Shown here piece after piece: positions 1 to 19,584 of a stretch of 47,285 bases of DNA. Source of the stretch: Deltaproteobacteria bacterium (GTDB lineage Bacteria > Omnitrophota > Gorgyraeia > Velamenicoccales > Velamenicoccaceae); NCBI GenBank assembly GCA_050258015.1, contig JBLMXZ010000093.1, positions 1 to 47,285 of the forward strand, written 5' to 3'. Under the pieces are notes generated by a model. The model had not been told where the DNA came from. It made no database searches and worked only from the letters and a program-made list of their open reading frames with translations. The first letter of the stretch is position 1, and each line of letters opens with the position of its first letter. The translations under genes were made by a program, and so were the position numbers.

Positions 1-3000
1 GATCCGCGCCAGGTCTTCCTTGATCTTGACGATCTCCTGCGTGTTCGTGCGGTACTGGCCGATGTGACGTTCGCGGCTCATCGACTCGTCGTTCGTCTCG
101 CTCTTCACGATGGCATCCAGGCGCTCGGTGATCTGCGCGCCGATGAGGCGGGCCGCCTCGAAGTAATCGGTGTTCTTGAGGCGTTCCAGCGCCACCTCGG
201 TCTGCTTCCTGAGGCTCGCCAGCTCGTTCTTATCGACGAACCAGATGTCCTCCACCTCGACCTCAAAGAGGCGCGACTCCAGCGGCGCCAGCTCCACGCC
301 GTCCGAATAGACGTAGTAGATGGACTTCTGCGAGTCGTATTCGAGGGTCAGGCCCGCCAGGTCCATGATGTCGCCGGGCTTGACCTCGGCCGGCAGGTAC
401 ACCTTGACGGGGACCGTCTGGACCCTGGTGCTCGACGGGTTGGCCACGGCGATGCGGAATTTGACGCTGCCGGGGGCCAGCGACGTCGAGACGACCGGCG
501 TATCCATGCCGCCCAACTTGGCCTCGAACAACTGGGACAGGAACTTGATCACGCCCGAGATCGCCTCGGTCTTCGACTGGATCTCCTTGATCGTGGGATT
601 CTCTCCGAGCGCGTCCTCGAGCATGCTCTGCAGGTCGATCCCTTCGGAATCGCCGACCAGGGTCTTGAGGCGGTCGGCGACCTGGTTGAGCAGCTTTGCC
701 TGGCTGCCCTTGTCCATCTGCTTACCCAGCAGTTCGGGCAGCTCTTCGACGCTCTGCTGCAGGTTCGTCAGGGCGAGGCCGATATTGACCGCGTTGTCGC
801 TGACCAGGACGTCCTGCAGGGTCGTCACCGCCTCCAGGACCTTCTTCGAGGCGCGCTCCGCCTCGGGGGCGGCGGCGGCAAGACCCGCTATGGCCGTGAT
901 CGATGTCGACTCGACCGTCCCGGAACCCGACACAAGGCCTCCCGTGATCGGCTCCGTGATGACATAGGTATAGGCCTTGCCCGGCGTGAAGACGCCCGTA
1001 TCCGCCTTGAGTTGATCGTACACGTAGAGACCGGTCTCCTTCTCGGTCATCGGCTTCTCGATCAGGATGGCCTTGTTGTCGTAATTGTAGACGCTCAGCA
1101 CGGGGGTCAGACGCGTCGGCCCCTGGCAGCTGAAGGTCAGCAGGTCCCCGGGCAGGGACGGGTTGGGCGAGACCGTCGCCTTCCAGGAGTACCTCTTGGC
1201 CGTGGCCTCCAGGTTCTCGCCGGCCTCAACCGCCTTGGTGGCGCCCGTCTGCAGCTTGCCGATGGCCTCCTGGGACTTCGTCTCAAAACTGGACAACGTC
1301 GCGTTGACGGTGCTGACCATCAGGTTCGTCTTATCGGTGATGATCTGTTGCTGCTGGTCCATCTTCGTCGTGATCAACTGAGTCTGGGTCTCCATCTTGG
1401 AGGTGATCAGCACGGCCTGGGTATCCAGCTTGTCGGTGATCAGGTTCTCCTGGGTATCCATCTTGTCGGTGATCAGCGTCGAGATGCCCGTCTGGAAGGC
1501 GGGCAGCGTGACGTCGCGCATCTGCTCGACCGCCTTCTGCGTATCCTGCAGACGCTGGGCCTCGGTCACCTGGAAAGAGCCGGGGGTCTTGAAGACCGCG
1601 CCGCTCGCGTTGGTGATCTTGGTGATCGTGCCGTAGGCCTTGCCCGACTGCAGCGTCGTCGGCGTCCATCTCATGTCGAAGAAACCGGCGGCGTTGGGCG
1701 AGTTGTCCGACACCGTCTGGATAAGGGTGCCGCCGTCATAGATCTCGACGGTCACGTCCGTCGCGCCCGAGACGACGAAACCGTCGCGCTCCAGCCACGA
1801 GGTGACGTTCAGGGCGTCCGACGATGTCGAGGTGGACGGCTCATACGCAAAGTCGGAATACGCGCGCCATATGTGGACGGTCGTCGTTTCAAGGTAGAGC
1901 GTGAACGCCTGGTCCGTCTTGCCGTCCTGGAAGTCGTAGTTCAACGCCTTCTCGCCGTAACCGGTCGCGACAAAGCTCGTCGTGTAGAAGCCGTACGGCA
2001 CCTCGTGGACGACGGGCGAGGTCAGCCCCGAGGCCTGCCAGACGATGTTCTCGGTGCCGGTTATCTTCTCCACCGCCGAGAGGTTCGTCAGCGCCTCGTT
2101 CGTCAACAGGTCCCGCAGTTCGAACGTGATGGTGTAGTAATCGATGGTAAAGGCCGCGTTCGAAACATCGTAAACGCGCGGATCGTTGACGTCCGAGACC
2201 CGGACCCGCACGCTCGCCGAGCGGTCGTCCGGGACGAGCCAGTCATAACTGCCGTCGTTGGGCGTGGAAGCGATGATCGTCTGGACGTCGGAAACGAAGT
2301 TGTCCTTCGAGTATTCGAGTTTGACGTCGGAGATAGTGCCCGCGTTGGTCGCCCATGTGATCGGCCGCGTCTCGAGGGCGATCCACCGCTCCCCGCCGTT
2401 GGGCGCGGTCACGGCGAAATCGCCGCGGATGGTGAAGTCCGCGTCCGACTCATCGTTCGTCATCGCGTCGTTCGGGTCCTCGATGCGCACCCGCGCGGTC
2501 AGGCTGATGGCGTCGGGTATGGTCCAGCTGTAGCTGCCCGTGTTCTGCGCCGGGTCCGCCTGGGTAACGATCGTGTTCGGATAGGTCGCCCCCGAGTCGG
2601 TCGAATACAGGAGCTTATAGCCGATGGTGCCGCCCTTGACCCAGGTCACATTATGCGCCGTTGAGACCACCCACTCCTCCCCGCCGTTCGGGGATGTCAG
2701 CGTGAAGAAGCCGCGGATACGGAAGTTCGCGTCCGAGGTGTCATAGACCGTATCGTCCGAGGTATTCTCGATGCGCACGCGGGCGCTGGGCGTCGCCGTA
2801 TCCGGGATGAGCCACGAATACGAGTTGGTGTTGCCGGTCGAGGCGACGATGGTGTTGGGATACGTCGCCCCCGAATTCATGGAGTACAGCAGCTTGACGT
2901 TGGCGATGGTGCCGGTCGTCACCCAGGTGATCGCGCTGTTCTGGTTGATGAGCCACAGCTCGCCGCCGTTGGGCGCGGTGATCCTCAAATCGCCGCGGAT

Positions 3001-6000
3001 CTTGAATGCCGCGTCCGAGATATCGTAGGCATCCGTATCGCCGATGCTCATCACGCGCACCTTGACGTTCGTCGATATGGAATCCGGTATGGTCCATGTG
3101 TGGGCGCCGTCGTTCGCCGTCGAGGCGATGATCGGCACCGCCGCGCCGAAGTCATTGAGCGAATAATCGAGCTTGACGTTGGCGACCGTCCCCACCGTCG
3201 ACCAGGTGATGTCATGGCTTTCCGCAACGGTCCAGACCTCCCCGCCGTTGGGCGCTTCCAGGGTGAATTTCGCGCGGATCTTGAGCGCGCTGTCCGAGGC
3301 ATCATAGGCCGTCGAATCCGCCAGGTCGCTGACGCGCACCTTGACGTTGGCGCTGATGGTATCCGGGACAGGGTCCCACGTCCAGACGCCGTCGTTGGGC
3401 GTCGCCGCGAGGATATACGGATACGTCGCGCCGCCGTCGACGGAGTATTCGATCTTCACGTCCGGCACGTTCGCCTGGGCGCTGGTGCACGTCCAGGTGA
3501 TATCGTGGGAACTGCCGACGTCCCACATCTGTCCGCCGTTGGGCGCGGTAACCGTCAGCCCCGTGATGATGCGGAAGTCGGAGCCCGACACGGCGTTGGC
3601 CCCCGCGTCATTGGGATCGGAGACGCGCACCTTGACGGTGTTCGAGATGCGGTCCGGCACGGTCCACGGATAGGAGCCGCTGTTCGCCGCCGCCGCCGCG
3701 ATCGTGTTGATGTCCGTCAGGAAGTTGAAGCGCGAGTATTCGATCTTGACGTTCGGGATGCTGCCGATCGTCGTCCAGGTGATGTTGTAGGTGGAGCCGA
3801 CCTTGTAGGTCTCCCCGCCCAAGGGCGCCGTCAGGATGACCGTCGCCCGGATGCGGAAGTTCCCGTTGGACACGTCGAAGGCCTCATCGTCGCTGGAATC
3901 CGCCACCCGGACGCGCACGCTGCCGGAGACGTTGTCCGGGACGGTCCAGGAGTAGGTGCCGATATTGCCCAGCGACGTGACGATGCCGTTGGGATACGTC
4001 GCCCCGCCGTCCGTCGAATAGGCAAGGTCCGCGAAGTTGATCGTCCCGCTCGTCGACCAGAGGATATCGTGGCTGGAGCCGACGATCCACGCCTCGCCGC
4101 CGTTGGGCGAGCTGATGACGAACGTCCCCTGGATCTTGAAGTTGGCGTTCGAGGCGTCCGTCACGGTCGAGTCGTCGTAATTCGTCACGCGCACGCGCGC
4201 CTGTGTCGTGATGGCGTCGGGGACCGTCCACGCGTAGGTGCCGGCGTTGGGCGTCTGGTTGATGATGGGCACGTAGGTCGCCCCGCCGTTGTCCGAATAC
4301 TCGAGCCGCACGTTGGCGATGGAGCCCACGCGGTCCCACGCGATGACCTGGCTGGAGCCCACGTTCCACTTCTCGCCGCCGTTGGGCGCGGTAAGGGTGA
4401 GATTCCCGCGGATCTTGAAGTTATTGTTGGAGATATCCCACGCGGAAGAATCGTTGGCATCCGAGACGCGCACGCGGCACGTCGTGGAGATGGTGTCCGG
4501 GACCGTCCACGGATAGGTGCCGTTGTTGGCGACGGAGGCCACGATCTGGTTCCAGTCCGTCCCGGCATTGGTGGAATACTCGAGCTTGACGTAACCGACG
4601 GTGCCGAAGGTCGTCCACGCGATATCGTGCGTGGTGCCGACGATCCATGCCTCGCCGCCGTTCGGGGCGGTGAGCAGGAAGGCGCCCTTGATCTTGAACG
4701 CGCCGTCTGAAACGTCCGACGCGTCGGTGTCCGTCGAATCCGTGATGCGGATCTTGACGTTCGCCGATATGGAATCCGGCACGGTCCAGGGGTATGTCAG
4801 GGCCGCGGCCGGCGTGGCATTGACGATCAGGTTCGGGAAGGTGGCCCCGCCGTCGGTGGAGTACTCGAGCTTGACGTTGGCGATGGAGCCGCTCTTGGTC
4901 CAGATGATGTCCTGGGCCGTGCCCACGCCCCATTGTTCGCCGCCGTTGGGCGCGGTGACGTTCAGCGTGCCGTGGATCTTAAAGACCGCGTCCGAGACAT
5001 CGACCGCGTTCGGATCGCCGATGTCGTAGATGCGCACCAGGCACTGCGTCGATATCGCGTCCGGAACGGTCCAGCCGTAGGTCCCCAGGTTCGTCTCCGA
5101 GTTCGAGATGACGCTCCAGTTCGTGCCGTTGTTCTTGGAGTATTCGATCTTGACGTTGGCGATGGAGCCGAAGGTGTTCCACGTGATGCTCTGGCTCGAG
5201 CCCACCGGCCACTTCTCCCCGCCGTTGGGCGCGGTGATCGTGAAACCGCCGCGGATGGTGAAGTTCGCGTCCGAGAAGTCGAAGACCGTGGCGTCGCCGG
5301 CATCGGCGATCTTCACGCGCACCTGGATGGACGGCCTGTCCGGGATAACCCAGTTCAGCGTCTGCAGGGCCGCATTGACCGACGTCGTGATGTTGTACGG
5401 ATACGTCGCGCCGCCGTCCGTCGAATAATCCAGCCGCGCGTTGCCGATGGAGCCGTTCTTGACCCACGTGATGCTGTGGTTGGAGTTGATGAGCCACACC
5501 TCGCTGCCGTTGGGCGCGCTCAGGATCAGGTCGCCGCGGATCTTGAAGTTCGCGTCCGAGGCGTCGAAGACGTTCGTGTCGTCCACGTTCGTCACCTTGA
5601 CGCGCACGGACGAGGAGATGGCGTCCGGCACACTCCACGGGTAGTTGCCGGTAGCGGCCGCGGTCGTGGCCACGATGGCGTTGGGATACGTCACGCCGCC
5701 GTCGAGCGAATAATCGATCTTGACGGCGGTGAGCAAGGTCCCCACGCGCGTCCAGTTGATGGACTGGGTCGTGCCCACCGGCCAGACCTCTCCGCCGTCC
5801 GGGGCGGTCACGGTCAATTTGCCGATGATCTTGAAGTCCGCGGCCGAGACGTCGTTGACGGACGCGTCGGTCGTGGCCGAAACGCGCACCCGGCCCTGGG
5901 TCGTCATGTTGTCCGGGACCGGGTTCCAGGTATAGGTCCCGCCCGCCGCGGCCACCGAGGCCGCGATCGTGTACGGGAAGGTCGAGCCGCCGTCGATGGA

Positions 6001-9000: not shown

Positions 9001-12000
9001 GCCGGCTATCTTGAAGACCGCGTCGGACTCATCGAACACGATGGACTCGTTATCGGCATCGGCGATCTTGATCCTGCAGGTATTGGAGACATGATCCGGG
9101 ACGGGGTTCCAGGCCCACAGCGACACGGATTCCGCATCGACCGTGGCCAGAGGCGTGACGACATAGCCGCTGCCGTAGTCCACGTAGATGTTGACGTTGC
9201 CCACGGTGCCGGTCTTGGCCCACGTGATGTTCTGGGACGTGCCCACGGGCCAGTTGTTGCCGCCGTTGGGCTGCGATACGGTAATGCTGCCCGCGATGCT
9301 GAAGACCTCCGAGAGGCCGTAGACGTTGGGGTTGACCGTGTCGACGATCTTGACGACCACGTTGTTGGAGACGTTGTCGGCCACGCCGTTCCAGTTCGCC
9401 TGGCCGAGGGTCGCGTCGACGTTGTTGGCGATGGTCTTGTCAAAAGGACCCGAGACGCCGTTGGTGGAGTAAAGAAGGTTGACCAGGGTGACCTTGGTGG
9501 AACCGCCGATGTTCCACTGAACGCCGTTGGTATTGTTGGAGCCGACGCGGATGACGGCGCCCAGGCCCGGCGCGGTCACCGTTATCTTCGGCCGGATGGA
9601 GAAGGGCGCGACCGAGACGCTGAAGACGTCGTCGTAGTTGTTGACGTCCGAGACGCGGACATAGCAGGTCTCGGAGTTCAGGTCCGCGACGCTCCAGTCG
9701 TAGGAGTTCGCCCCGGCGGTATGGCCGCCGTGGTTGGCCTCGATGGTCGCGTAGGAGCCGGCGAGCGAGGTCTTGTACTCTATCTTGACGTTGGTGACCG
9801 TACCCGAGGCGTCCCAGGTGATCTGCTTGGTCTCCCCCTTGTACCAGATCTGGCCGGACTCGGGGGCCGTGACGTCGAGGCCGCCCAGGATCGACAGGGC
9901 GTCCGAGGTGTCGCGCACGACGGTCGGCTGGTGGTCGGGGTCGTAGACGCGGACCTTCAGATTGCTCGTCAGGCTGTCGGGCAGGTTGGTCCACTGGTAC
10001 GACTGCTGGACGCCGGTGGCGCCGGCCGGACGCGTGACGTTCAATAAATAGGTAGCGAAGTCGTCCTTGGAGGCCTGGACCTGCACGTTCGTGTAGGTGC
10101 CGGTCGGGGTCCAGAGGATGTTCTCGTTGGTGCCGACGGTCCACTTCTCCGTCCCTGCCGGCGCGTCGAGGGAGATCTGGCCGATGATCTCGAAGGTATT
10201 GTCCGAGACGCCGTAGGCCTCGGAGTTGGCCTTGTCGACGACCTTGATCTTCATGTGCTTGCCCACGATCAGGTTCGGGATGTCCCAGTTATAGGATGCG
10301 GGCGTGGCCGGCACACCGGCCGCGGTCGTGATCTCGTTGGGATACGTCGTGCCGTCGTTGGTCGAATAGTAGATGCGCACGTCGGAGACGGGCCCCGAGG
10401 TCGACCAGGTGATGGCATAGGGGTTGCCCGTGCCGTAGGTCATGACGATGTTGTCCGCCGAAGGCGTCAGGACCGTGATGGCGCCCTTGACCATGAAGTT
10501 CTGGGAGACGCCGTAGACGGTCGTGTAGGCGCCGTCGACGATCTTGAGCTTGGCGCCGGTGGCCGAGAGGATGTCCTGGTCCGTGGGGATGTTCCACTGG
10601 TAGGTGTTGGCGCCGGCCGAGACCGCGTAGCCGGAGGCGACGGTGTAGGCATAGTTGTCCGTGCCGCCGTCCTTGGAGTACTTGATGTTGACGGTGTCGA
10701 TCTTGCCCGTGACGTTAAAGAGGATGTTCTGCTGCGACCCGACGGCCCACTTGGCCGAGGAGGTCGGGGCCGTGACGCTGAGGGCGCCGTGGATCCAGAA
10801 GTTCGAGCTCTCCTTGGCGGTGGCCGGCTGCACGGGGTTGGAGGCCGTCAGGCGGACCTTACAGGTCGTGGCCGCCGTGGTCGAAGGCACGGTCCACGGG
10901 TAGATGCCGGAGTTGGTGGCATTGCTGGCCAGGGTCGACCAGGAGGTGCCGTTGTAGAACTCGACCTTGACCTCGGTGACGTCGGTGCCGGTCGGGGTCC
11001 AGGTGATGTCGTAGGCGTCCCCGGAAGTCAACGGCGAACCGTCGGGCGTCAAGAAGGCGAAGCCGCCGATGATATGGAAGACCGCGTCGGACTCATCCAC
11101 GACGACCGTGGGGTTGTTGACGGCGGCGATCTTGATCTTGCAGGAGTTCGAGACCTCGTCCGGAATGGGGTTCCAGGCGAAGACCGAGACGGTCTCGGCG
11201 TCTATGGGCGACGGGTTGATGGGCGATATCTCGTAGCCCGAGCCGTAGTCCACGTAGATGTTGACGTTGCCCACGGTGCCGGTCTTGGTCCAGGAGATGT
11301 TGCGCGAGGCGCCCACGGGCCAGTCCTCGTTGCCGTTGGGGGCCTGGACGGTGATGCCGCCGACGATGTTGAAGATCTCCGACAAACCGTAGACGTTGGT
11401 ATTGATCGTATCGGCCACGCGCACGACGACCGTGTTCGAGACGTCGTTGGCCACGCCGTTCCAGTTCGCCTGGCCGAGGCTCGCGTCGACGTTCGAAGCG
11501 ATGGTCTTGTCAAAGGGACCCGCCACGCCGTTGGTGGAGTAGGCGATGTTGACGCTGGTGACCTTGGCCGAGCCGTTGCGGCTCCACTGCACCGCATTCG
11601 TGTTGTTCGAGCCGACCCTGATATTGGCGCCGAGGGCCGGGGCCGAGACCGTGATCAAGGGCCGGATGGCGAAGGCCTCGGCCGAAGTCCCGTAAACGCT
11701 GTTGTTGGCGTGGTCATAGACGCGCACCCAGCAATCCTCGGAGTTCTCGTCCGGGACGGTCAGCGGATACGAGTTCGCGCCGTCGGCGTGTCCCGTGTCG
11801 TTCGTCACGATGGTCTTGTTGAAGGAATCGCCGGAGGCGGTCTTGTATTTGATATCGACCGCGCCGATGTTGCCGGTCTCGGTCCACGTGACCTCCTTCG
11901 ACTGCCCCTTGACCCAGACGGTCGTCGCCCCGCTCGGCTGGACGTTCGAGATGCCGCCGATGACCTTGAAGGCGCCCTGGGACACGTCCGACACGGGGAT

Positions 12001-15000
12001 GCCGCCGATGCTCGTCACGCGCACCTTGAGCGTGTCGGCATTGGTGATGTCGTCGATGCCGGGCGTCCACGGATAAGGGCTGTTGGCCGAAGGATAGCTG
12101 GAGGTAATGGTGCGTGTATCGGAGGCGAAGTTGTCGGCGGAGTACTCGATCTTGATGTTGCCTATGGAGCCGGTCTTGGTCCATGTGATGTCGAAAGGCG
12201 TACCGACGGTCAGCGTGTTGGCGCCGTCCGGTGCCGTCAGGTCGATGGAACCTTTAAGCGTGCTGGCCGCGGTCGTCTCGACCTTGACGTCGGGGTTGCC
12301 GGCGTCCACCACGCGGAAATGGACCTGGGAGGAGATGTTGTCCGTCGGGGCCCAGGTCTTGCTCAAGCCCACAACGTCGTCGCCGATCTGCGTCCAGTTC
12401 GTCTTATTATTAAAGGAAACGAAGATGTCGAAAGCCGCGATGTTGCCGAACTTCGTCCACGTGATGTCGTACGGCGTGCCCACCACGAGGGTGTCGCCCG
12501 CGTCGGGATCCGGCGTCGACAGGAAGATGCTGCCCACGATGGCGTTGTCCGTATTCGAGACGTTCTCGTCGGTCGGGTCGGTGGCGCCTATCGGCAGGAC
12601 CTTGACCTTGACCGTGGCCGAAGGCGCATCCGGAATGGTCCAGCTGAAGCCTGTCGTCGGGCCGATGGAGGAATCCAGGTCTTCGGCGCCGGTGATGGCG
12701 GTCCAGACCGCGTGGGGCGCATCCGTGGAATAATACAGGGCCACATGACCCACCTGCCCCGTGCGGCTCCACTTTATCGTATAGGGCGTATTGATCGAGA
12801 GGTTGACCCCGCCGTCCGGCTGGGTAACATCCACCTTGCCCTTGATCGTAAACCAGCCGACGGACTGGTCCGAGACGGCCGAATCGCCGACCTTGGAGAT
12901 GCGCACGATGCATTTGTTGGAGAGCGTGCTGTTGGGGATCTGCCAGTTATAGGTAAGGGCAGCCTTGTCTATTTCGACGATCTCGTAAGGCGCCCCCACC
13001 GGCCAGGTCGATCCGCCGTCATCGGAATACTGGAGCTTGACCAGTTGTCCCGCCGCGAACCCCTTCGTCGTCCACGTGATGGCGTGGAGGTCCCCCACGA
13101 CCCATCCCTCCCCGCCCACGGGAGACCCGAGGGTCACGGTCGGTTTGATCTTGAAATCGGCGACGGAACTGTCCTGGACGGTGATGTCCAGCGCGTCGCG
13201 CACGCGGATACGCACGTGGTCGGAGACGACGGCCGAGCTGTTGGGGATGGTCCACGTGTAACTGCCGGCGGGTCCCGACGTCGACCCTACGACGGCGCCC
13301 GTATAACCGTTGTTACCGCTGTTGGTATCGTAGTCGATGGCGACGTTGGCGATCGAACCCGTCAAAGACCACGTGATATTCAGGTCCGTCTCCACTTCCG
13401 CGGAAAGCTCGGGATTGTTATCCGGGTAGCTCAGGATGACGCCGCCCTTGACCGCGAAGCCCGGGTCCTCCGTGACCGAATTGACATAGGTGCGGTCGGA
13501 GACCTGTTCGATCTTGAGCTTGCCCTGGGTCGTCGGCTGGTTGGGGACCGCGAGGGCATACGGCTGGCTCGTCCCGGCGTCTATCGTGGCCAGGGCCGCC
13601 CCGTACGCGCTGCCGCCGTCGGCGCTGAAGAAGATCTCGATATTACCCAGCGTGCCGGCGTAATTCCACGTCACGTCGATAGGGTCGCCGCCGATATAGT
13701 AGATGCCGCTCGTGGTGGGTGCCGTCATGCTTATCTTGCCTTTGATCGCGAAGCTCTCGGACTCCTTTTGGACCTCGGTCTCGTTGCCGACCTGCGTCAC
13801 CTTGATCTTGTTGTCCGTGCCGATGGTGTTGCGGCCGCCCCACGTCGCGGGAATCGTCCAGGTGTAGCTCTGCGGGCCGCTGGCGCCGGCCTCGCCGCTG
13901 GTGACGGGCAGGTACTCGGCCCCGCCGTTGTCGGAGTAATAGATGTTGACCGTGCCCAGATCGCCGCAGTTCTTCCACTCGATCAGGTGCGTGCTCGGCA
14001 GCGCGGCGCTGTTGACGCGCAGGGCGTCCGTGCCCGTGTTCGTAGAATCCGGCGAGGTGACGACGATCTTTCCTTTGATCGTGAAGTCCTGCGCGGAGGT
14101 GGCAGAGACATAGCTCGGCGCGTTGGCGCTCATGACCTTGACGCGCACGTGGCTGCCGATGGCGTTGGGGACCGCCCAGCTGTATCCGTCGAGGTTGGCG
14201 ATGGCCGCCCCGCCGGCGATAAGCTTATCATAACCGTCGTTGCCGCTGTTGGTGTCGTACGCGAGCTTGACCTGGCTGATGTTGCCGTAGGTATCCCAGG
14301 ATATCTGGTAGCTGTCCGTCGCGTCGTCCGGATCGTCGACCTCGAGGGTCTCCAGGCCGTTGGGTTGCGACAGGACCAGTTTGCCCTGGATAATGAGGGA
14401 ATTATCCGAGACGTCCGAGATGGTGGCGTCGTCGCTGAACTCGACCTTGAACTTGATATTCGCGTTGCGGTCGTTGGGGATGACGTTATCCGGTATGGGC
14501 TGCCACAGGTACGAGCGCGCGCCCGAGCCCGCCGGGTAATCCGTGACGATGGTGTTGTTGTACGGCTCCCCGCCCGTCGTCGAGTAATAGATATCGACCG
14601 AGGAGATGTCGCCCACCGCGGTCCACGTGATCTGGTGGTTGGTGCCGACCTCCCAGGTGGGCGTCCCATCGCCGTTCGACTCGCCCGTGATGGTGATGGA
14701 CCCCTTGATGCTGAAATCATAGGCGCTGGCGGCATAGACCGAGCTTTCCTTGCCGACCTGGTAGACCTTGACGCGCACGTTCGGCCCCACGATGCCGGCC
14801 ACGTCCTCTATCGTCCACTTGTAGCCGATATCCGCCCCGCCGGAAGGAATATTGTCCGAGGCGACGCCGTCGGCGATGAATCCCTGGTAATCGTCGCTGT
14901 CGCCGGGCGTGCCGTTGGCGCCCTTGCCGGAGTTGGTGTCGTAGCGCAGGTTCACCAGTCCGAAGCCCGCCGGGTTCGGCGTCCACTTGATATAGACCTC

Positions 15001-17727
15001 GTCGCCCACCTGATGGCTTATCCCCGTCGCGTTGGGATAGACCAGGACAAGGCTCCCCTCAACGGCGAAGAGTCCCGTTATGCCGCCCGTCCCGCCGTTC
15101 TCGTCCTCATCCCCATCGAGACCGACCCTTACCTTATTGGTCACCCCCATATGCGCCTGGACCGGCGTCCAGTTGAAATACCCCTGGCTCATCGGCACCG
15201 TTCCCAGAAGGATATCGTAGGAGGTCCCGCTGTTCTTGGACAAGCGCACGTTCGCGTCTCCGGAGAAGGTCCCGGTCGGCGTCCACTGGATGGTCTTCTG
15301 CGTCCCCACATGGAGCGTCTCGCCCGCGTGCGGCTCGGTCACCGAGACCAACCCCTTTATCTTAAAATTGTTGTCGCCCTCGTCATATATATAGGTATGG
15401 TCATGGTCCTGCACCCGGATCTTGACCGTATCGCTGATGGCGTCCGGGACCGGCCAGGAGTAGGGGCTCGCGTTCGGGATACCCGCGGGAGGCGTAACGG
15501 TCACCGCTCCCGTTCCCTTGTCGTAGAGGATGTCTACGGTCGTCACGGTCCCCTGCGTCGTCCATTCGATGTCATGGGTCGTGCCCACGCGCCAGACGAT
15601 GCCCGAACCGCTGGGCGTCGTCACGGTCAAGGTCTGCTGGATGGTAAAGTCCGAGCCCGAGGCGTCGCCGACGCTCGGAAAGTCTATGGAGACGACCTTG
15701 ATGCGGGCCTGGGAGGTGCCGGGCGCGGTCGGGGTCCACGGAAAGGGAGACGAGTCCGCCGCGATGCCGGCGGCGATGGTCTCGGTATAGGTGCCGCCCG
15801 AGTTGCGCGACAGCTTGATATCCACGCCGTTCGTCATGAAGGTCGAGCCCTTGACCGTCCAGATGACATCGTTGGATTCGCCTATCTTCCACGTCTGACC
15901 GCCTGTCGGCGCGGATAAGGTGATCTCGCCCGACACCGAGAAGTTGGAGTCCGAGGTATCGTAGACGCGGGACTCCTCGCCCACCTGCTCGACCCTCACG
16001 CGCACCTGATCGCCCAGGGGCAGCGGCCCCGTCGTCCAGTTGATGGCATAAGGGCTGGAGCCCGCGGCGAGGCCCGTGGCGATGGTCGTCGAATAGCTGG
16101 TGCCGGAATTCGTGCTGTACTTGAGGGCAACGGTACGGCCCGTCGTCGGGCCATAGAAGGTCCACTGAATATTCGTCGGGTCTGTATAGGCGATCGTCTC
16201 CCCGCCCACCGGGTAGGTCAAATCCAGCTTGCCGATGACCTCGAAGTTCGCGTCGGAGGTGTCCGAATAATAGGAGTCGTCGCCGCTCGCGTAAGAAGAA
16301 TCCCTCACCTTGATGCGTGTCGTAGCGCCGATGACCGCGCCGTCCGCCGCGGACGGCGTCCACGAATAGCTGGTGCTGCCGGAGCCGCTGTTGGTCACAC
16401 CCGAAGCCAGCGTGATGGGATACGTCCCTCCTCCGTCATTGGAAAGGAGGATGTTGACCGTCGCGACGCGCGCCGGCGCGTACCACGTGATGTCGTGCGC
16501 CTCGCCGCACTTCCACAGCTCCCCGCCGTTGGGCGAAAGGACTTTCATGGGCTCAAGCTGCACGCCGAAATAATCCATGACGGATATCTGGCTATTGTCG
16601 CCCCTCTCGGCGCGTATCGTGGTGTCATTGAGGAATTTGACGGCGGAGCGCGCAACGTCATTGGCCGTCCCGCCGCCGAAACAGTCCAGGGAGCTTACGG
16701 AGAACCGCCATTTGGAATTGAAGCTCCGGGAAAAGCCGAAATCCGCGTAACCGTAGGTGTTGGCGACCTTGGGCAGGAGACCGGAACCGTTCTGGGAAAA
16801 ACCGAGGCTGCCCAGCTCGATACAATAATAATAGATATCGCTCACCCCGCCGATGTTCCTCTTGTTGAAAACGACCGTCAGATCGGACCCGAGCGATCCG
16901 CGCCACCATTGGTCCAAGCTTCCGTCCGACGTTGTAAAGCTGAAGACCAAAAAGGCCTTGCTGCGGTCCACGGCCGTGGACAGGGTGCTGGTGACCATGA
17001 CGTCGCCGGAGGTGGCCTGGACGAGGCCGCACTGGACGGTCGAGTCGTCGCGCAGGTGCACGACCTGATACCACGCGTCGACGGCGTTGGTGGTGCCGGC
17101 GCGCCAGATCTTGATCTGGTCCTGCGTCGGCGCCGTGTTGTAGATGACCTGGGAGGCCAGCTGGATATCGATGATCTGGCCGGCGTTGTTGGAGGCGCAG
17201 TTCGTCGGATACGCCAAACTGAATGTCTTGCCTGAGGGGAAATCGTGGGTGAGGTTGACGGTCGCCGAGGTGGCCCCCACGGAAAAGCTCGCGGTGCCGC
17301 TCTCCACCTCGAAGGCGTCCGACACGACGACGTAATACTTGATGCCCTGGTCCGCCTCGGTGGAAGAGGCGTTGCGCAGGAACTCGATCTGGTTGTTGCT
17401 CGTGCCGCTCTGGGTGGAAGGATTAAAACGCGCGGCCCACGCCTGGTACTTGGGCGTGGTCTGCTGCGTGTAGAAGGTAAAGAAAATGACGGACCGGGTC
17501 GTATCGACGCTCTCCGACAAAGTCTCGAGCTTCTGGCTGAGGCTCTGCGTGCTGAACTCGCCCGAGAAGACGCGCGTGCGCGCCTCGGCAGACCCCGTCC
17601 CCAGGCCGACGATAAAGGCGGCCGCCAGGCACAGCGTTGTGAGGGTCCCCAGGAAGGCCTTGAGTCCGCGTCGTGCCGCTGTGCAACGCAGGGCCGCGCG
17701 CCGGCCGGTCCATGTCAAAGCCTCCAT
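1..17727 (-). CDS. Giant exported repeat protein (fibrillar adhesin-like); only the first 5,909 codons are present, the C-terminus lies beyond the left edge
   Basis: The minus frame whose codons end on coordinates divisible by 3 is open from ATG 17727 (GGTGAGGA just upstream) to base 1. The supplied track has no ORF in this frame, consistent with no in-window stop. Hand translation gives MEALTWTGRRAALRCTAARRGLKAFLGTLTTLCLAAAFIVGLGTGSAEA... (signal-peptide-like) at the start and ...HIGQYRTNTQEIVKIKEDLARI at bases 90-1. G/C third-position bias fits this frame. All long + strand ORFs here are Arg/Gly/Asp-rich mirror frames. Confidence 0.9.
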   Translation of the reverse strand, partial: MEALTWTGRRAALRCTAARRGLKAFLGTLTTLCLAAAFIVGLGTGSAEARTRVFSGEFSTQSLSQKLETLSESVDTTRSVIFFTFYTQQTTPKYQAWAARFNPSTQSGTSNNQIEFLRNASSTEADQGIKYYVVVSDAFEVESGTASFSVGATSATVNLTHDFPSGKTFSLAYPTNCASNNAGQIIDIQLASQVIYNTAPTQDQIKIWRAGTTNAVDAWYQVVHLRDDSTVQCGLVQATSGDVMVTSTLSTAVDRSKAFLVFSFTTSDGSLDQWWRGSLGSDLTVVFNKRNIGGVSDIYYYCIELGSLGFSQNGSGLLPKVANTYGYADFGFSRSFNSKWRFSVSSLDCFGGGTANDVARSAVKFLNDTTIRAERGDNSQISVMDYFGVQLEPMKVLSPNGGELWKCGEAHDITWYAPARVATVNILLSNDGGGTYPITLASGVTNSGSGSTSYSWTPSAADGAVIGATTRIKVRDSSYASGDDSYYSDTSDANFEVIGKLDLTYPVGGETIAYTDPTNIQWTFYGPTTGRTVALKYSTNSGTSYSTTIATGLAAGSSPYAINWTTGPLPLGDQVRVRVEQVGEESRVYDTSDSNFSVSGEITLSAPTGGQTWKIGESNDVIWTVKGSTFMTNGVDIKLSRNSGGTYTETIAAGIAADSSPFPWTPTAPGTSQARIKVVSIDFPSVGDASGSDFTIQQTLTVTTPSGSGIVWRVGTTHDIEWTTQGTVTTVDILYDKGTGAVTVTPPAGIPNASPYSWPVPDAISDTVKIRVQDHDHTYIYDEGDNNFKIKGLVSVTEPHAGETLHVGTQKTIQWTPTGTFSGDANVRLSKNSGTSYDILLGTVPMSQGYFNWTPVQAHMGVTNKVRVGLDGDEDENGGTGGITGLFAVEGSLVLVYPNATGISHQVGDEVYIKWTPNPAGFGLVNLRYDTNSGKGANGTPGDSDDYQGFIADGVASDNIPSGGADIGYKWTIEDVAGIVGPNVRVKVYQVGKESSVYAASAYDFSIKGSITITGESNGDGTPTWEVGTNHQITWTAVGDISSVDIYYSTTGGEPYNNTIVTDYPAGSGARSYLWQPIPDNVIPNDRNANIKFKVEFSDDATISDVSDNSLIIQGKLVLSQPNGLETLEVDDPDDATDSYQISWDTYGNISQVKLAYDTNSGNDGYDKLIAGGAAIANLDGYSWAVPNAIGSHVRVKVMSANAPSYVSATSAQDFTIKGKIVVTSPDSTNTGTDALRVNSAALPSTHLIEWKNCGDLGTVNIYYSDNGGAEYLPVTSGEAGASGPQSYTWTIPATWGGRNTIGTDNKIKVTQVGNETEVQKESESFAIKGKISMTAPTTSGIYYIGGDPIDVTWNYAGTLGNIEIFFSADGGSAYGAALATIDAGTSQPYALAVPNQPTTQGKLKIEQVSDRTYVNSVTEDPGFAVKGGVILSYPDNNPELSAEVETDLNITWSLTGSIANVAIDYDTNSGNNGYTGAVVGSTSGPAGSYTWTIPNSSAVVSDHVRIRVRDALDITVQDSSVADFKIKPTVTLGSPVGGEGWVVGDLHAITWTTKGFAAGQLVKLQYSDDGGSTWPVGAPYEIVEIDKAALTYNWQIPNSTLSNKCIVRISKVGDSAVSDQSVGWFTIKGKVDVTQPDGGVNLSINTPYTIKWSRTGQVGHVALYYSTDAPHAVWTAITGAEDLDSSIGPTTGFSWTIPDAPSATVKVKVLPIGATDPTDENVSNTDNAIVGSIFLSTPDPDAGDTLVVGTPYDITWTKFGNIAAFDIFVSFNNKTNWTQIGDDVVGLSKTWAPTDNISSQVHFRVVDAGNPDVKVETTAASTLKGSIDLTAPDGANTLTVGTPFDITWTKTGSIGNIKIEYSADNFASDTRTITSSYPSANSPYPWTPGIDDITNADTLKVRVTSIGGIPVSDVSQGAFKVIGGISNVQPSGATTVWVKGQSKEVTWTETGNIGAVDIKYKTASGDSFNKTIVTNDTGHADGANSYPLTVPDENSEDCWVRVYDHANNSVYGTSAEAFAIRPLITVSAPALGANIRVGSNNTNAVQWSRNGSAKVTSVNIAYSTNGVAGPFDKTIASNVDASLGQANWNGVANDVSNTVVVRVADTINTNVYGLSEIFNIVGGITVQAPNGNEDWPVGASRNISWTKTGTVGNVNIYVDYGSGYEISPINPSPIDAETVSVFAWNPIPDEVSNSCKIKIAAVNNPTVVVDESDAVFHIIGGFAFLTPDGSPLTSGDAYDITWTPTGTDVTEVKVEFYNGTSWSTLASNATNSGIYPWTVPSTTAATTCKVRLTASNPVQPATAKESSNFWIHGALSVTAPTSSAKWAVGSQQNILFNVTGKIDTVNIKYSKDGGTDNYAYTVASGYAVSAGANTYQWNIPTDQDILSATGAKLKIVDGAYTTVYGVSQNFMVKGAITVLTPSADNIVMTYGTGNPYAITWSTSGPVSDVRIYYSTNDGTTYPNEITTAAGVPATPASYNWDIPNLIVGKHMKIKVVDKANSEAYGVSDNTFEIIGQISLDAPAGTEKWTVGTNENILWTPTGTYTNVQVQASKDDFATYLLNVTRPAGATGVQQSYQWTNLPDSLTSNLKVRVYDPDHQPTVVRDTSDALSILGGLDVTAPESGQIWYKGETKQITWDASGTVTNVKIEYKTSLAGSYATIEANHGGHTAGANSYDWSVADLNSETCYVRVSDVNNYDDVFSVSVAPFSIRPKITVTAPGLGAVIRVGSNNTNGVQWNIGGSTKVTLVNLLYSTNGVSGPFDKTIANNVDATLGQANWNGVADNVSNNVVVKIVDTVNPNVYGLSEVFSIAGSITVSQPNGGNNWPVGTSQNITWAKTGTVGNVNIYVDYGSGYVVTPLATVDAESVSLWAWNPVPDHVSNTCRIKIADADNESIVFDESDAVFKIAGNFTVTAPVDQEILIVGSNYDITWSRQGSAITDVKIEYSTNNGTSWTTITDAASNTGSYPWTVQDAISNSCKIRVSDPNNSEAYDDSEGNFKIKGSLTVTSPNDGTESWNVASTYPITWTKTGSIASVNIYYSANNGTSWTKLNTLAVDASLGTWDWAISGSTPLTTQGLIRVENAADSSVKDESDNNFIVKGSVTLVTPSATGISLRVGDAYAITWTKAGAVQNVELHFSTNGGIVGGGAYAGGDLIATVPATDGSYSWSVPDRIGTNVRVRVRDAANSAVWDESDNVFEIKGKVLVNAPNGTEEWYVGDPHQITWTPTGTFAQVRLQYSTNAFATEDYTVNIVTLAAGASGVPQNYDWTVPDAITNTMKVRVKDTTNDTVADVSDATFIVRGRLTLLVPNGTEEWVVGGSQNITWSRAGSVTPVKLEYSTNGGSTYPFTIVASTNGLTGTYPWSVPDAISDQVRVKITDVNDSLVTDESDANFFIKGYVVLQTPNGGEAWGVGTTQNITWARYGSAVSNVKLEYSDNGGTSYDTVIIASTDAATGSYPWQIPDHINATMKIKITSTTDSTITDTSNNNFKIVGVLTVQAPNGGEQWGVQTQHNISWTMSGSISNVKIDYSTNSGQAYPNPVVASTPAGSLAYLWTIPDAVSNAVRVRVADASDSTVFDTSNADFSIEARFDVTSPDGGEVWVVGSSHDITWTKIGSTPNVKIEYSTDSGLNFPNTIIDSTPNTGSYPWVVPDVISSSLRVRVSDANNTDAYNDSEANFKIRGNITVAAPNGNEAWIVGSKYNILWTKTGSIANVKLEYSTDGGGTYPSLILASIGAGVGTYEWTIPDDRSQTCRVKVTDTTDSSVFDTSNADFKIRGNLVVTAPNGSEQWAVESLHDITWTRTGSIPTVKLEYSIDGGSTYPNTIIASTDASAETYPWTIPDTISNLARVRVVDTTDSTVNDISNANFKIMGVLELTSPNAGTEAWEVGSSHPITWNRTGSIANVKLEYSIDGGSTFPYTIAASVAAAGGTYTWNPVPDNMTTQGRVRVSATTDASVNDVSAADFKIIGKLTVTAPDGGEVWPVGTTQSINWTRVGTLLTAVKIDYSLDGGVTYPNAIVATTAAATGNYPWSVPDAISSSVRVKVTNVDDTNVFDASDANFKIRGDLILSAPNGSEVWLINSNHSITWVKNGSIGNARLDYSTDGGATYPYNITTSVNAALQTLNWVIPDRPSIQVRVKIADAGDATVFDFSDANFTIRGGFTITAPNGGEKWPVGSSQSITWNTFGSIANVKIEYSKNNGTNWSVISNSETNLGTYGWTVPDAISTQCLVRIYDIGDPNAVDVSDAVFKIHGTLNVTAPNGGEQWGVGTAQDIIWTKSGSIANVKLEYSTDGGATFPNLIVNATPAAALTYPWTVPDSISANVKIRITDSTDTDASDVSDGAFKIKGAFLLTAPNGGEAWIVGTTHDIAWTTFGTVGYVKLEYSTNAGTDWNQIVASVANNGTYPWTVPDTISTTCRVRVSDANDSSAWDISNNNFKIRGNLTLTAPNGGEKWNVGSSQVIAWDRVGSIANVRLEYSDNGGATYVPIINQTPNAGTYAWTVPDAITTQARVRVTNYDDSTVTDASNANFKIQGTFVISSPNGGEAWIVGSSHDILWSTSGTINFADLAYSTDGGATYPNGIVTSLGNIGTYSWTVPDNVSGSVRVRVADSSDDEAFDVSNGNFRIRATVILTAPLGGETYKVGSTYNITWTTIGSIPNVKIEYSRFNFLTDINTIAAAAANSGSYPWTVPDRISNTVKVRVSDPNDAGANAVSGSDFRIITGLTVTAPNGGQMWDVGSSHDITWTCTSAQANVPDVKIEYSVDGGATYPYILAATPNDGVWTWDPVPDTISANVKVRVSDLADSTAYDASDSALKIRAKFTLEAPNGGEVWTVAESHDITWSTVGTVANVKLDYSLNDFGAAVPIIASTANDGAHTWTIPDSISTNVKVRVMSIGDTDAYDISDAAFKIRGDLRITAPNGGELWLINQNSAITWVTTGTIANVKLLYSMNSGATYPNTIVASTGNTNSYSWLIPDTATPSARVRIENTSDDTVYDTSDANFRIRGFFTLTSPNGGEEWVVSTAHNVTWVKGGTIGYKLLYSTDSGATYPNTIVTQADPAQNTGSYSWTIPDAISLTARVRIEDPNDAMTNDESDADFTIRGDFAVTAPNGGERWIALETRPITWATNAGTISDVKLEYSKDNFVSDVQTIIASTPNDGSYDWLVPDDRSASVRVRVSDVNDPRVYDVSNAAFTIDYYTITFELRDLLTNEALTNLSAVEKITGTENIVWQASGLTSPVVHEVPYGFYTTSFVATGYGEKALNYDFQDGKTDQAFTLYLETTTVHIWRAYSDFAYEPSTSTSSDALNVTSWLERDGFVVSGATDVTVEIYDGGTLIQTVSDNSPNAAGFFDMRWTPTTLQSGKAYGTITKITNASGAVFKTPGSFQVTEAQRLQDTQKAVEQMRDVTLPAFQTGISTLITDKMDTQENLITDKLDTQAVLITSKMETQTQLITTKMDQQQQIITDKTNLMVSTVNATLSSFETKSQEAIGKLQTGATKAVEAGENLEATAKRYSWKATVSPNPSLPGDLLTFSCQGPTRLTPVLSVYNYDNKAILIEKPMTEKETGLYVYDQLKADTGVFTPGKAYTYVITEPITGGLVSGSGTVESTSITAIAGLAAAAPEAERASKKVLEAVTTLQDVLVSDNAVNIGLALTNLQQSVEELPELLGKQMDKGSQAKLLNQVADRLKTLVGDSEGIDLQSMLEDALGENPTIKEIQSKTEAISGVIKFLSQLFEAKLGGMDTPVVSTSLAPGSVKFRIAVANPSSTRVQTVPVKVYLPAEVKPGDIMDLAGLTLEYDSQKSIYYVYSDGVELAPLESRLFEVEVEDIWFVDKNELASLRKQTEVALERLKNTDYFEAARLIGAQITERLDAIVKSETNDESMSRERHIGQYRTNTQEIVKIKEDLARI
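1325..1490 (-). repeat. Five in-frame 33-nt (11-aa, hendecad) repeats in the post-array coiled-coil region of the giant CDS
   Basis: ggtgatcag-type cores at 1336, 1369, 1402, 1435 and 1468, exactly 33 nt apart. Translation: LITDKMDTQEN LITDKLDTQAV LITSKMETQTQ LITTKMDQQQQ IITDKTNLMVS. Confidence 0.8.
2150..16550 (-). repeat. In-frame array of about 49 tandem ~93-100-aa beta-sandwich (Ig-like; Kre9/KNH-type 'Ser-Thr-rich GPI-anchor family'-like) domains inside the giant CDS
   Basis: Period ~282-300 nt. The + strand motif gccgccgttggg (PNGG on the minus strand), or degenerate versions, recurs near 2392, 2680, 2963, 3243, 3533, 3815, 4097 ... 15908, 16210, 16527 (counted by eye). Verified unit (4693-4983): FKIHGTLNVTAPNGGEQWGVGTAQDIIWTKSGSIANVKLEYSTDGGATFPNLIVNATPAAALTYPWTVPDSISANVKIRITDSTDTDASDVSDGAFKIKG. 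The family name is from memory of the motif pattern, not a search. Confidence 0.85.
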
Positions 17728-17788: not shown

Positions 17789-18310
17789 CTATTCTTCCTC
17801 GGGCTCCACTTCCTGGGCAAAGGTCACGACCGGCAGCACCCAGTACGCGACCACAACGTCCTTCATCGCCACATCCGGCGCCAGCTCGAACTCGATCAGA
17901 TAGGCATCCGGCTGCTCGATGACCTCTTTGCCCTCCTCGCGCATCTTCTTGCGCATGCCCTTTCTCATGACCTTGGTCAGGTCGAGCGCCGCCGCGCCGG
18001 CCTTCTTGTCGGCGCTGCGCAGGACGGCCTGGCTGCCGGAACCCGGCAGGGCCGTCGCCGGATCGTAGAGCTGATAGAGCTTCTCGATCGCGACCGCGTT
18101 GTACTGCTCGTCCAGGTCCCGCATGTCCGTGGAGCGCACGCGCGCCGCGGCGACCGGGATGCGGGCCGCCTCCCCTTCCGGAAGGGCGATCGTGCCCGGC
18201 GTCACCTGGATGACCATCGCCTTCTTGACGGGTTGCGGCTCTTCGGCGCCCGCCCGCGCCGCCGCGAGGAAAACAGCGGCCAAAGCAAAACAGAAGATTT
18301 TCGTTTTCAT
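17789..18310 (-). CDS. Small secreted hypothetical protein (173 aa) with signal peptide and acidic C-terminus
   Basis: ORF track. N-terminus MKTKIFCFALAAVFLAAARAGAEE is signal-peptide-like. The ATG overlaps the upstream stop as ATGA (18307-18310). The stop lies 61 nt before the giant gene start. No family recognised. Confidence 0.75.
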   Translation of the reverse strand: MKTKIFCFALAAVFLAAARAGAEEPQPVKKAMVIQVTPGTIALPEGEAARIPVAAARVRSTDMRDLDEQYNAVAIEKLYQLYDPATALPGSGSQAVLRSADKKAGAAALDLTKVMRKGMRKKMREEGKEVIEQPDAYLIEFELAPDVAMKDVVVAYWVLPVVTFAQEVEPEEE

Positions 18311-19464: not shown

Positions 19465-19528
19465 CTTCTGTCCTTTTTTGCCTTGACTCTTTCCGGTTCC
19501 CTGTTTTCTATTCTTTTTTTATCATTCA

Positions 19529-19570: not shown

Positions 19571-19584
19571 CTTGCGCATGCCAC

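Follow-up and report, generated by a model that had tools for sequence, protein, structure and literature searches.

The contig JBLMXZ010000093.1 of assembly GCA_050258015.1, deposited as a Deltaproteobacteria bacterium and placed by GTDB in the Omnitrophota, was analyzed over its 47,285 nucleotides (nt), hereafter called the window. From position 17727 down to base 1, its minus strand carries 5,909 codons of a gene for a giant protein of approximately 6,000 amino acids (aa), composed of a signal-peptide-like N-terminus, a head predicted to be all-beta, 49 contiguous immunoglobulin (Ig)-like repeats, and a conserved tail. We consider it probable, at about 60%, that this protein is a cell-surface attachment fiber that is regulated by cyclic di-GMP (c-di-GMP) and acts alongside glycan and type IV pilus genes.

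In the proposed mechanism, the protein would be exported by the Sec pathway via a cleavable signal peptide and become a type I membrane protein. Its ectodomain would carry the head at the distal tip, followed by a stalk of 49 Ig-like domains and a conserved base of approximately 800 residues. Because an Ig-like domain is approximately 4 nm long, the stalk would extend approximately 200 nm, which would be comparable to the diameter of ultra-small Omnitrophota cells. A helix of the base with 11-residue repeats would oligomerize as a coiled coil, and a C-terminal transmembrane (TM) helix would hold the protein in the cytoplasmic membrane; this helix and a short, charged tail on its cytoplasmic side would both fall within the approximately 90 residues outside the window. 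A promoter-like site, a c-di-GMP-I riboswitch, and a terminator would head a unit of three genes, encoding a Y1 transposase-like protein, a small secreted protein, and the giant protein. The fiber would work together with glycan synthesis and type IV pili as these ultra-small, probably host-dependent cells attach to other cells or surfaces. Passages of Seymour 2023 (PMC10066038) link both the ATPase/type IVa pilus locus and giant open reading frames (ORFs) to attachment.

Structure of the giant gene and its protein family

Translation of the reverse complement of positions 1 to 17727 yielded 5,909 codons without a stop. When all six frames were translated with no stop required, only this frame was open; the remaining five contained 5 to 343 stops each, and the chance of an equally long open frame was approximately 10^-70 under a mononucleotide composition model. 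The G+C contents (GC) at the first, second, and third codon positions were 0.52, 0.48, and 0.89, respectively, compared with a third-position value of 0.82 in ten Pfam-supported genes of the window, whose overall GC is 62.5%. These results confirm that the frame is a real coding gene. The original prediction of a minus frame open from the ATG at 17727 to base 1 was borne out, with no in-frame TAA, TAG, or TGA in between, and so was its explanation for the missing entry in the ORF list: the list required a stop, and the gene was absent because its frame runs off the window. The four plus-strand ORFs listed over the same DNA (64 to 2664, 3100 to 4710, 4933 to 10047, and 10255 to 15918) are codon-aligned with the giant frame, have a first-position GC of 0.89 to 0.91 and an Arg-, Gly-, Val-, and Asp-rich composition, and show poorer codon usage. 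They are spurious antisense shadows of the giant gene, as had been proposed. ORF callers that require a stop will miss genes of this kind, and their shadow ORFs should not be annotated. All features described below lie on the minus strand.

An alternative in-frame ATG is present at 17784, 4 nt past the stop of the upstream gene. We kept the start at 17727 because homologues of the head align at matching offsets (query 23–45 versus subject 24–44) and because AGGTGAGGA precedes this ATG.

The 5,909 residues are rich in Thr (11.5%), Ser (9.4%), Val (9.1%), Gly (8.7%), and Asn (6.5%) and contain 0.3% Cys. According to sequence rules, residues 1 to 49 (17581 to 17727) form a putative signal peptide with an Arg/Lys-rich n-region, a hydrophobic segment at residues 21 to 47, and predicted cleavage at AEA↓RT. 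The hydrophobic segment was the only one found across the 5,909 residues by a 19-mer scan, and the cleavage motif, A-x-A↓RT(K/R)V(Q)SG, is kept in homologues P0027–P0035. The N-terminus is thus probably a cleavable Sec signal peptide. The earlier view, that one genuine gene encodes a giant repeat protein destined for export, is supported.

The N-terminal head (residues 50 to 395; 16543 to 17580) is compact and contains three to four internal "VQSG...VD..KSF" units. It had no match in Pfam, NCBIfam, or PDB sequences. A word-indexed search returned no homologue of the head; an exhaustive HMMER scan found 11 at E<1e-10, each of them the N-terminus of a long Omnitrophota protein with the same layout. 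AlphaFold2 modeled the head and the first two repeats as all-beta with a mean predicted local distance difference test (pLDDT) score of 87.9 and a predicted template modeling score of 0.83. The one compact fold match of the head, the C-terminal domain of PCSK9, was weak (template modeling score 0.49), and no function is read from it. The model is confident, and the head is regarded as a novel all-beta domain.

A self-built hidden Markov model delimited 49 contiguous repeats of approximately 93 aa with 2-aa linkers (residues 396 to 5198; 2134 to 16542), whose consensus is ..APNGGE.W.VG....ITWT..G....V...YS...G..Y...I.....Y.WTVPD..S....VRV.D..D..V.D.S...F.I.G. Segments of the array matched the Pfam family Kre9_KNH (PF10342) with 71.6 to 108.4 bits against a gathering threshold of 24.6. 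When repeats were searched singly, 26 of the 49 matched PF10342 at E<=0.01, and repeat 1 spanned profile positions 1–89 of 94 with 26.2 bits. The repeats therefore appear, from these profile matches, to belong as distant relatives to the Ig-like family Kre9_KNH; a search of the repeat profile against PDB sequences gave nothing significant. The likeness to fungal Kre9/KNH proteins lies in the fit of the repeat unit to the same profile. The fungal proteins are small, glycosylphosphatidylinositol (GPI)-anchored cell-wall proteins with one domain, and the two share the level of fold only, not functional equivalence. Pairwise identity among the repeats averages 34% in protein (maximum, 73%) and 51% in DNA (maximum, 77%), and no near-repeat is longer than 300 nt (81% DNA identity); the repeats are old and diverged. 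Repeats 30–49 are closer to each other (40–60%) than repeats 1–29 (approximately 20–35%). An ancient block duplication is visible at approximately 9164 to 11533, where repeats R16–R19 correspond to R23–R26, seven units apart, at a spacing of 2,064 to 2,070 nt; the pairs R17/R24 (73%) and R18/R25 (65%) have the highest identities of the array.

The conserved tail module (residues 5199 to 5909; 1 to 2133) was modeled with a pLDDT of 77 as two beta-sandwiches, a helix of approximately 105 residues, a sandwich, a helical bundle, a further sandwich, and terminal helices. Neither the tail nor its profile had a match in Pfam, NCBIfam, or PDB sequences. Foldseek returned only generic strings of Ig, FN3, and macroglobulin sandwiches, from which no function is read; extender segments of giant adhesins (6xi3 of MpIBP and 2yn3 of SiiE) are among the best matches. 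The modeling and fold searches that had been recommended for head and tail thus gave a confident all-beta head, a modular sandwich-and-helix tail, and only weak or generic fold matches; the recommended profile search of single repeats gave the Kre9_KNH family. The long single helix (residues ~5408–5513; 1189 to 1506; positions 210–315 of the tail model) contains five 11-residue "LITDKMDTQxx" repeats, and because of this 11-residue periodicity we suspect a coiled coil, for which the helix is a plausible candidate and which could serve oligomerization.

Tail homologues were found in 26 protein clusters and in 63 species-representative genome loci, with 25–83% identity in the best segment. Nearly all carriers are metagenome-assembled genomes (MAGs) or single amplified genomes (SAGs) of Candidatus Omnitrophota. 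MAGs deposited as "uncultured Planctomycetia", "Patescibacteria group", or "Deltaproteobacteria" (L002, L003, L006, and L025, among others) also appear, and their labels probably reflect labeling or binning errors. The closest loci (L002, L003, and L035) have a GC of 0.61–0.63, like the window, and the head, tail, and neighbors are conserved among genomes with a GC of 0.33–0.63. At least 3,000 residues are visible in 24 of the 63 loci, and in 47 the ORF is open upstream and reaches the limit of the contig or sequence; giant size is therefore typical of the family. In one MAG, the gene is spread over two contigs and totals at least 5,474 aa. The orthologue in L065 (10001 to 17887) was called as two ORFs 27 nt apart, one of 1,299 aa and the other of at least 1,320 aa; the stop or frameshift that separates them could stem from faulty sequencing or truly disrupt the gene. 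The automatic PGAP annotation of one homologue reads "GPI anchored serine-threonine rich family protein". By sequence similarity, these proteins constitute a conserved, phylum-wide family of giant proteins.

The C-terminal end could be read in 61 of the 63 loci, those with a contig long enough to include it. In all 61, the homologue stops 78 to 127 aa beyond the position of the window edge (78 to 100 in all except L060), after a linker, a TM helix of approximately 23 residues, and a Lys/Glu-rich tail of 35–45 aa. Several positions of the TM motif, TW..IF..F.GLL..FF.W..Q, are at least 90% conserved across the phylum, and an AKK.AFP motif follows. With all homologous loci counted, more than 100 showed an ending at this distance with the conserved helix. 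Given these end points, the giant protein would have approximately 6,000 aa, of which about 1.5% lies off the window, with a stop codon approximately 270 nt beyond base 1 and a C-terminal TM helix that would anchor the protein. The earlier suggestion of an anchor outside the window agrees with the TM helix that homologues carry in the next ~90 residues. Its description of the frame as the 5' part of the gene does not hold, as the window carries approximately 98.5% of it judging from the homologues.

An assembly artefact, either misassembled repeats or a non-functional or antisense reading, would also account for so long a repeat ORF. The N-terminal half (residues 1–2786) has no equally close comparator assembly, the case is judged from assembled sequence alone, and the contig could not be extended: an exact 50-mer of its left edge had no match in GTDB representative genomes or JGI metagenomes, and a neighboring window gene was found beyond the window itself on one 2-kb Logan contig only. 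However, L003, an independent assembly, aligns to residues 2787–5909 in one collinear high-scoring segment pair at 80.7% identity, against approximately 44% at best for alignments out of register. L002 is collinear likewise (~80% in protein), as are L069 and L070 at the DNA level, so that four independent assemblies cover the C-terminal 1,700 to 3,100 aa in register at approximately 80%. Because these assemblies are collinear, misassembly of the C-terminal half is very unlikely. The DNA identity of the repeats is at most 77–81%; therefore, short reads can place them. These observations, together with the strong coding signature and the conservation of head, tail, and neighbors across genomes of widely different GC, make an artefact extremely improbable.

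A probable riboswitch-led unit that includes the giant gene

Two genes precede the giant gene on the same strand. The adjacent one (17789 to 18310) encodes a 173-aa protein with an N-terminal signal-like segment and no Pfam or NCBIfam family match. It overlaps the next gene by 4 nt and is separated from the giant gene by 61 nt, a gap that contains no terminator-like site on the coding strand. A gene for 152–176 aa occupies the same position in L065, L066, and L067, with detectable similarity only in L065 (37%). The first gene of the unit (18307 to 19464) encodes a 385-aa protein that carries a Y1_Tnp/REP-transposase-like domain (PF01797), a TM helix at residues 224–247, and a conserved C-terminal beta domain of approximately 130 aa; its match to NCBIfam NF047646 was below the cut-off. 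Orthologues are present in L065 (8219 to 9415), L066 (8276 to 9433), and L067 (8329 to 9525), with 37–44% identity in L065 and L066. All four genomes preserve the HLHLL (HUH) motif without change, and three retain the YIHLNP tyrosine. We rejected a mobile element, since the gene is syntenic in four genomes and its product combines the transposase-like domain with a TM helix and a conserved domain; because of this synteny, the gene is regarded as a fixed component of the locus. The product looks like a domesticated, membrane-anchored HUH protein, and the annotation "IS200-like transposase" would be misleading here.

An AT-rich gap of approximately 700 nt (19465 to 20162) lies 5' of the Y1-like gene. 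It contains a σ70-promoter-like site (19771 to 19799) with TTGAAA and TATATT separated by 17 nt and an extended TG, identified by a match to 10 of 12 consensus positions only. A c-di-GMP-I riboswitch aptamer follows at 19635 to 19751: it matched RF01051 (clan CL00126) over the complete model (1–87 of 87) with 48.5 bits against a gathering threshold of 35 and an E value of 1.5e-6, and it has a 41-nt insertion in one hairpin. An intrinsic-terminator-like hairpin with a 12-bp stem and a T-tract was located by a leader scan at 19584 to 19617. The fold of the leader had a z score of −5.6, and the hairpin is likely the expression platform of the riboswitch. At the orthologous spot of L067, the GGC-variant model of the same clan matched with 62.2 bits against a gathering threshold of 59, and L065 and L066 gave weak, sub-threshold matches to the c-di-GMP-I clan in the same place. 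With the GGC-variant model, the aptamer of the window scored 43.1 bits against 59. Since it scores between the canonical and variant models, its ligand is not certain.

The order of genes common to the window, L065, L066, and L067 is radical SAM/SPASM, glycosyltransferase family 1 (GT1), WbqC, (AAA), PIG-L, GT4, the gap, the Y1-like gene, the gene for ~150–176 aa, and the giant gene. In tblastn searches of the window genes against L065 and L066, whose GC is 0.39–0.41, the enzymes showed 33–63% identity. The upstream neighbors of the window were not found in the loci baited with the tail, because the upstream flanks of those loci fall inside the giant ORF. On the grounds that the aptamer occurs in the leader gap of the window and of L067, and weakly in L065 and L066, the giant gene most likely belongs, as the third gene, to a unit controlled by a cyclic-dinucleotide riboswitch.

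c-di-GMP-I (GEMM-I) riboswitches control, for example, pilA1 and CD2831 of Clostridioides difficile and gbpA of Vibrio cholerae. In those systems, as in the window, an aptamer followed by an intrinsic terminator forms the leader of surface-attachment genes. In contrast, the Omnitrophota unit belongs to another phylum, its first gene encodes the Y1-transposase-like membrane protein, and its aptamer carries the 41-nt insertion.

ATPase and type IV pilus genes beyond the giant gene in relatives

The genes that follow the giant gene lie to the left of base 1, outside the window, and were read in the 60 genome loci whose sequence continues past the giant stop codon. In all 60, a gene for an ATPase epsilon-like subunit follows on the same strand, often at −18 to +50 nt from the stop. 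In L034 (SAG AM-311-M22), the sole such case, epsilon and c lie approximately 9 kb past the giant stop and are not adjacent to it, which could result from an insertion or rearrangement. After epsilon come c (in 59 of 60), a b-delta fusion, alpha, gamma, and beta (9720 to 14830 of L003), and then, in L003 (14857 to 18842) and approximately 40 further loci, genes for a stand-alone MshEN protein, for a PilB-like ATPase that combines MshEN with PilZ, and for PilC. The MshEN and PilZ domains are c-di-GMP receptor domains and thus represent a second layer of c-di-GMP sensing at the locus. In L003, the spacer that separates the giant stop from epsilon was scanned for σ70 promoters and terminators; one weak terminator-like site appeared, no more than in shuffled sequences. 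In the converse search, with c as the bait, the giant tail lay directly upstream in 46 of 48 metagenome loci that extend at least 1 kb upstream and in 30 of 31 that extend at least 2.5 kb.

In this ATPase, epsilon consists of the N-domain only. The c subunit is an ATP-synt_C protein of 70–75 aa (PF00137 above gathering in 7 of 10 tested), in which the column aligned with the ion-binding carboxylate is Glu in 34 of 60 loci and another residue in 26 (Gln, 19; Leu, 3; Val, 2; Phe, 1; Ala, 1), Leu being found in the nearest relatives of the window; the register of this column, set against reference c sequences, is a lead with which the Pfam match agrees but which that match does not establish. Alpha and beta pass the canonical atpA and atpD cut-offs, and the scores of epsilon, gamma, and delta are far under the respective cut-offs. 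Subunit a was found neither in the downstream block of the relatives nor in the window. With no subunit a, a partial epsilon, weak gamma and delta, and the carboxylate missing in 26 of 60, the block does not correspond to a canonical F1Fo operon, although subunit a may be encoded elsewhere. Passages of Seymour 2023 (PMC10066038) describe this ATPase as non-respiratory, Mycoplasma type-2/3-like, and "symbiotic", and place it beside type-4a pili in all Omnitrophota classes; those passages, selected by search terms, do not mention an adjacent large gene.

This neighborhood raises the question of whether the fiber is the extracellular working part of the a-less F-type ATPase. In that case, the TM helix and the AKK.AFP tail could dock on the c-ring or on the b-delta stator, and ATP hydrolysis could move, tension, or extrude the fiber. 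The near-invariant order of epsilon, c, b-delta, alpha, gamma, and beta after the giant stop, the converse search, the lack of subunit a in block and window, the loss of the c carboxylate in the closest relatives of the window among others, the reduced epsilon, and the low scores of gamma and delta speak for such a motor, as does the conservation of the TM helix, which is unusual for a passive anchor. The non-respiratory classification in the cited passages points the same way. However, synteny alone is no proof of a physical or functional link, and the ATPase block lies outside the window. Alpha and beta score lower on the models of Mycoplasma gliding than on atpA and atpD, and those of L003 fall below the MMOB1660/1670 cut-offs. 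Glu is kept in 34 of 60 c subunits, so that many of these enzymes may be ordinary ATP synthases whose gene for subunit a lies outside the block, and the c-baited loci are biased to the same clade. The giant protein has no detectable similarity to characterized families, with no direct comparison to Gli349 or Gli521 having been made. We therefore regard a motor-coupled fiber as unlikely.

In the gliding machinery of Mycoplasma mobile, which comprises the giant surface proteins Gli349 and Gli521, an F1-like type-2 ATPase drives giant "legs" on the cell surface. The likeness extends to a non-canonical F1-type ATPase, to TM-anchored surface proteins of several thousand residues, of which Gli521 is anchored C-terminally, and to a small, host-associated bacterium. 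Unlike Mycoplasma, the Omnitrophota block includes a c subunit, its alpha and beta fit atpA and atpD, and the Mycoplasma genes are not known to be adjacent. The machinery is cited in passages of Seymour 2023 (PMC10066038). Mechanical coupling of ATPase and fiber in Omnitrophota would be purely conjectural. It is slightly less likely again that the fiber, the a-less ATPase, and the type IV pilus form one c-di-GMP-controlled machine, with the ATPase running in reverse as a motor or tensioner through the TM helix; if so, it would be a new apparatus for surface motility or attachment in ultra-small bacteria, convergent with Mycoplasma gliding. A c-di-GMP-regulated attachment fiber, encoded beside these genes, is the reading we prefer.

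Proposed attachment fiber, possible envelope coat, and the upstream glycan cluster

A same-strand cluster for glycan/exopolysaccharide biosynthesis occupies 20163 to 43828. According to Pfam and NCBIfam matches, it encodes Wzc-like and Wzy_C proteins, a flippase, glycosyltransferases of the GT1, GT4, and GT9 families, methyltransferases, DegT, a radical SAM-SPASM protein, WbqC, an XrtA-ATPase-like AAA protein, a PIG-L deacetylase, and a WecA-like transferase. The part proximal to the giant gene is syntenic in L065, L066, and L067.

A conserved glycan cluster directly upstream, with a flippase and a WecA-like initiating transferase, would also suit a structural role of the giant protein in the envelope, as a spacer, scaffold, or glycan carrier, for example a heavily glycosylated, Ser/Thr-rich coat protein or anchor. 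The abundance of Thr, Ser, and Asn given above fits such a role, and the Wzy_C/O-antigen-ligase-like protein of the cluster is of a type that O-oligosaccharyltransferases share. The literature also contains the proposal that a giant Velamenicoccus protein forms a "coat", and one Foldseek match was to the S-layer protein 7ptp, with a low template modeling score. On the other hand, neither an SLH domain nor another known S-layer anchoring or lattice domain was detected in Pfam or NCBIfam, which led us to reject an S-layer protein. A single TM anchor and a linear Ig array of approximately 200 nm suit a filament better than a lattice, and c-di-GMP control and the type IV pilus neighbors would indicate attachment behavior. 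Glycosylation of the giant protein is itself a conjecture from composition and neighbors. A coat function is thus doubtful.

The attachment fiber accords better with the array. The 49 contiguous Ig-like repeats form the stalk expected of a fibrillar adhesin, and the signal-peptide-like N-terminus and the off-window TM helix expected from the homologues fit export and anchoring, which in a diderm may or may not lead to exposure at the surface. No ligand-binding domain was recognized in the head or tail, which were blank in Pfam, NCBIfam, and PDB sequences and gave only weak or generic folds. Of the original proposal of a fibrillar adhesin or surface-layer-type protein, the tandem Ig-like array as a classic adhesin stalk stands; a known adhesive domain, an S-layer anchor, RTX repeats, and a sortase signal were not found in Pfam or NCBIfam, so that the choice between an adhesin and a surface layer is conjectural.

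Several points weigh against an attachment fiber. There is no recognized adhesive, lectin, or enzyme domain, and the head lacks an informative structural relative. Omnitrophota are thought to be diderm, so that a fiber anchored in the inner membrane must cross the outer membrane or the cell must lack one. The gene is known from its sequence, not from expression; the signal peptide and topology derive from sequence rules alone; and the 3' end and the downstream genes come from relatives at approximately 80% identity. As for the regulation, the riboswitch matches of two of the four loci (L065 and L066) are sub-threshold, and model scores do not fix the ON/OFF logic or the choice between the canonical and GGC-variant ligand.

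Fibrillar adhesins such as Salmonella SiiE, the Marinomonas ice-binding adhesin MpIBP, and proteins of the LapA/Bap type are likewise exported proteins of several thousand residues, built as strings of beta-sandwiches of approximately 90–100 aa with a distinct tip and base. SiiE, MpIBP, and LapA differ in being substrates of type I secretion systems (T1SS), with C-terminal RTX repeats and a secretion signal and with N-terminal retention, whereas in the giant protein the export signal, of Sec type, would be N-terminal and a TM helix would form the C-terminal anchor. An RTX/T1SS adhesin was rejected: no segment had a HemolysinCabind/RTX or BIg match in Pfam, the C-terminus is a TM helix with a charged tail in the homologues, and the N-terminus is of the Sec type. 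A PEP-CTERM/exosortase substrate was considered because an XrtA-like ATPase and chain-length proteins are encoded in the window. It was rejected as well, given the Lys/Glu-rich tail of 35–45 aa and the absence of a PEP motif at the C-termini of the homologues, and XrtA-type matches below cut-off; no exosortase was found in the window and no PEP-CTERM signal on the giant protein. The XrtA/PEP-CTERM-system-like ATPase (21930 to 22748) scored 220 bits against a cut-off of 324.5, and a fusion of a chain-length determinant with a tyrosine kinase (41894 to 43828) reached 176 bits, with the XrtA-type cut-off at 279.

The giant proteins published for Omnitrophota (West-Roberts 2023, bioRxiv 10.1101/2023.11.21.568195; Nielsen & Lui 2026, bioRxiv 10.64898/2026.06.07.730766; PMC10066038) have, in the parts of these sources consulted, at least 10,000–20,000 aa, numerous TM helices, and domains of the SecA_DEAD, dockerin, TSP3, lectin, or enzyme kind. 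These proteins ("Archaeovorins", Dockerin-type proteins, and tandem-repeat scaffolds) resemble the present family in phylum, in membrane anchoring with a large extracellular part, in ancient diverged repeats rather than recent expansion, and in secretion or pilus genes nearby, as far as those parts go. They differ from it in that the family described here has approximately 6,000 aa, two hydrophobic segments, Kre9_KNH repeats, conserved sequence, and fixed neighbors. With this length, two hydrophobic segments (one expected from homologues), and no SecA_DEAD, dockerin, TSP3, or peptidase C39 domain, the giant protein was rejected as a member of the "Archaeovorin" or Dockerin type.

A giant surface protein in Omnitrophota is by itself not surprising. 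The size class had been called rare, which applies in general; within Omnitrophota it is common and, in the parts of the literature consulted, already published. In those parts of the West-Roberts, Seymour, and Nielsen & Lui papers, neither Kre9_KNH repeats nor adjacency to the ATPase appear, and the flank analysis in the portions seen of the giant-gene preprints reports secretion and pilus genes, not this ATPase or family. A literature search combining "F1-like ATPase" or "c-di-GMP riboswitch" with Omnitrophota returned no paper. Judged by the literature searched, the conserved family, its C-terminal anchor module, the riboswitch-led unit of three genes, and the near-obligate adjacency to an a-less ATPase and pilus block are new. 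Phylum-wide conservation, fixed partners on both sides, and a recognizable regulatory RNA set this family apart from most Omnitrophota giants. Beyond what the original prediction considered, the context, namely the riboswitch, the upstream partners, and the downstream ATPase and pilus genes, is the most informative part of the locus. Giant surface proteins on the one hand and the "symbiotic" ATPase/pilus locus on the other had been suggested to underlie a host-dependent lifestyle, in both cases with no mechanism given; the locus makes both the role of this ATPase and the idea of giant-ORF adhesins experimentally addressable.

Other genes of the glycan cluster show irregular boundaries or unusual fusions. 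An ORF of 530 aa with a WecA-like GT4 domain (20163 to 21823) overlaps the PIG-L deacetylase gene (21209 to 21823) in another frame; its true start is probably near 21150, because orthologues align only from residue ~202. A 642-aa protein (29713 to 31641) is an unusual fusion of Trm112-like, methyltransferase, and APH phosphotransferase domains, and a 716-aa protein (31681 to 33831) fuses GT4/GT1 and GT9 heptosyltransferase domains in an equally unusual way.

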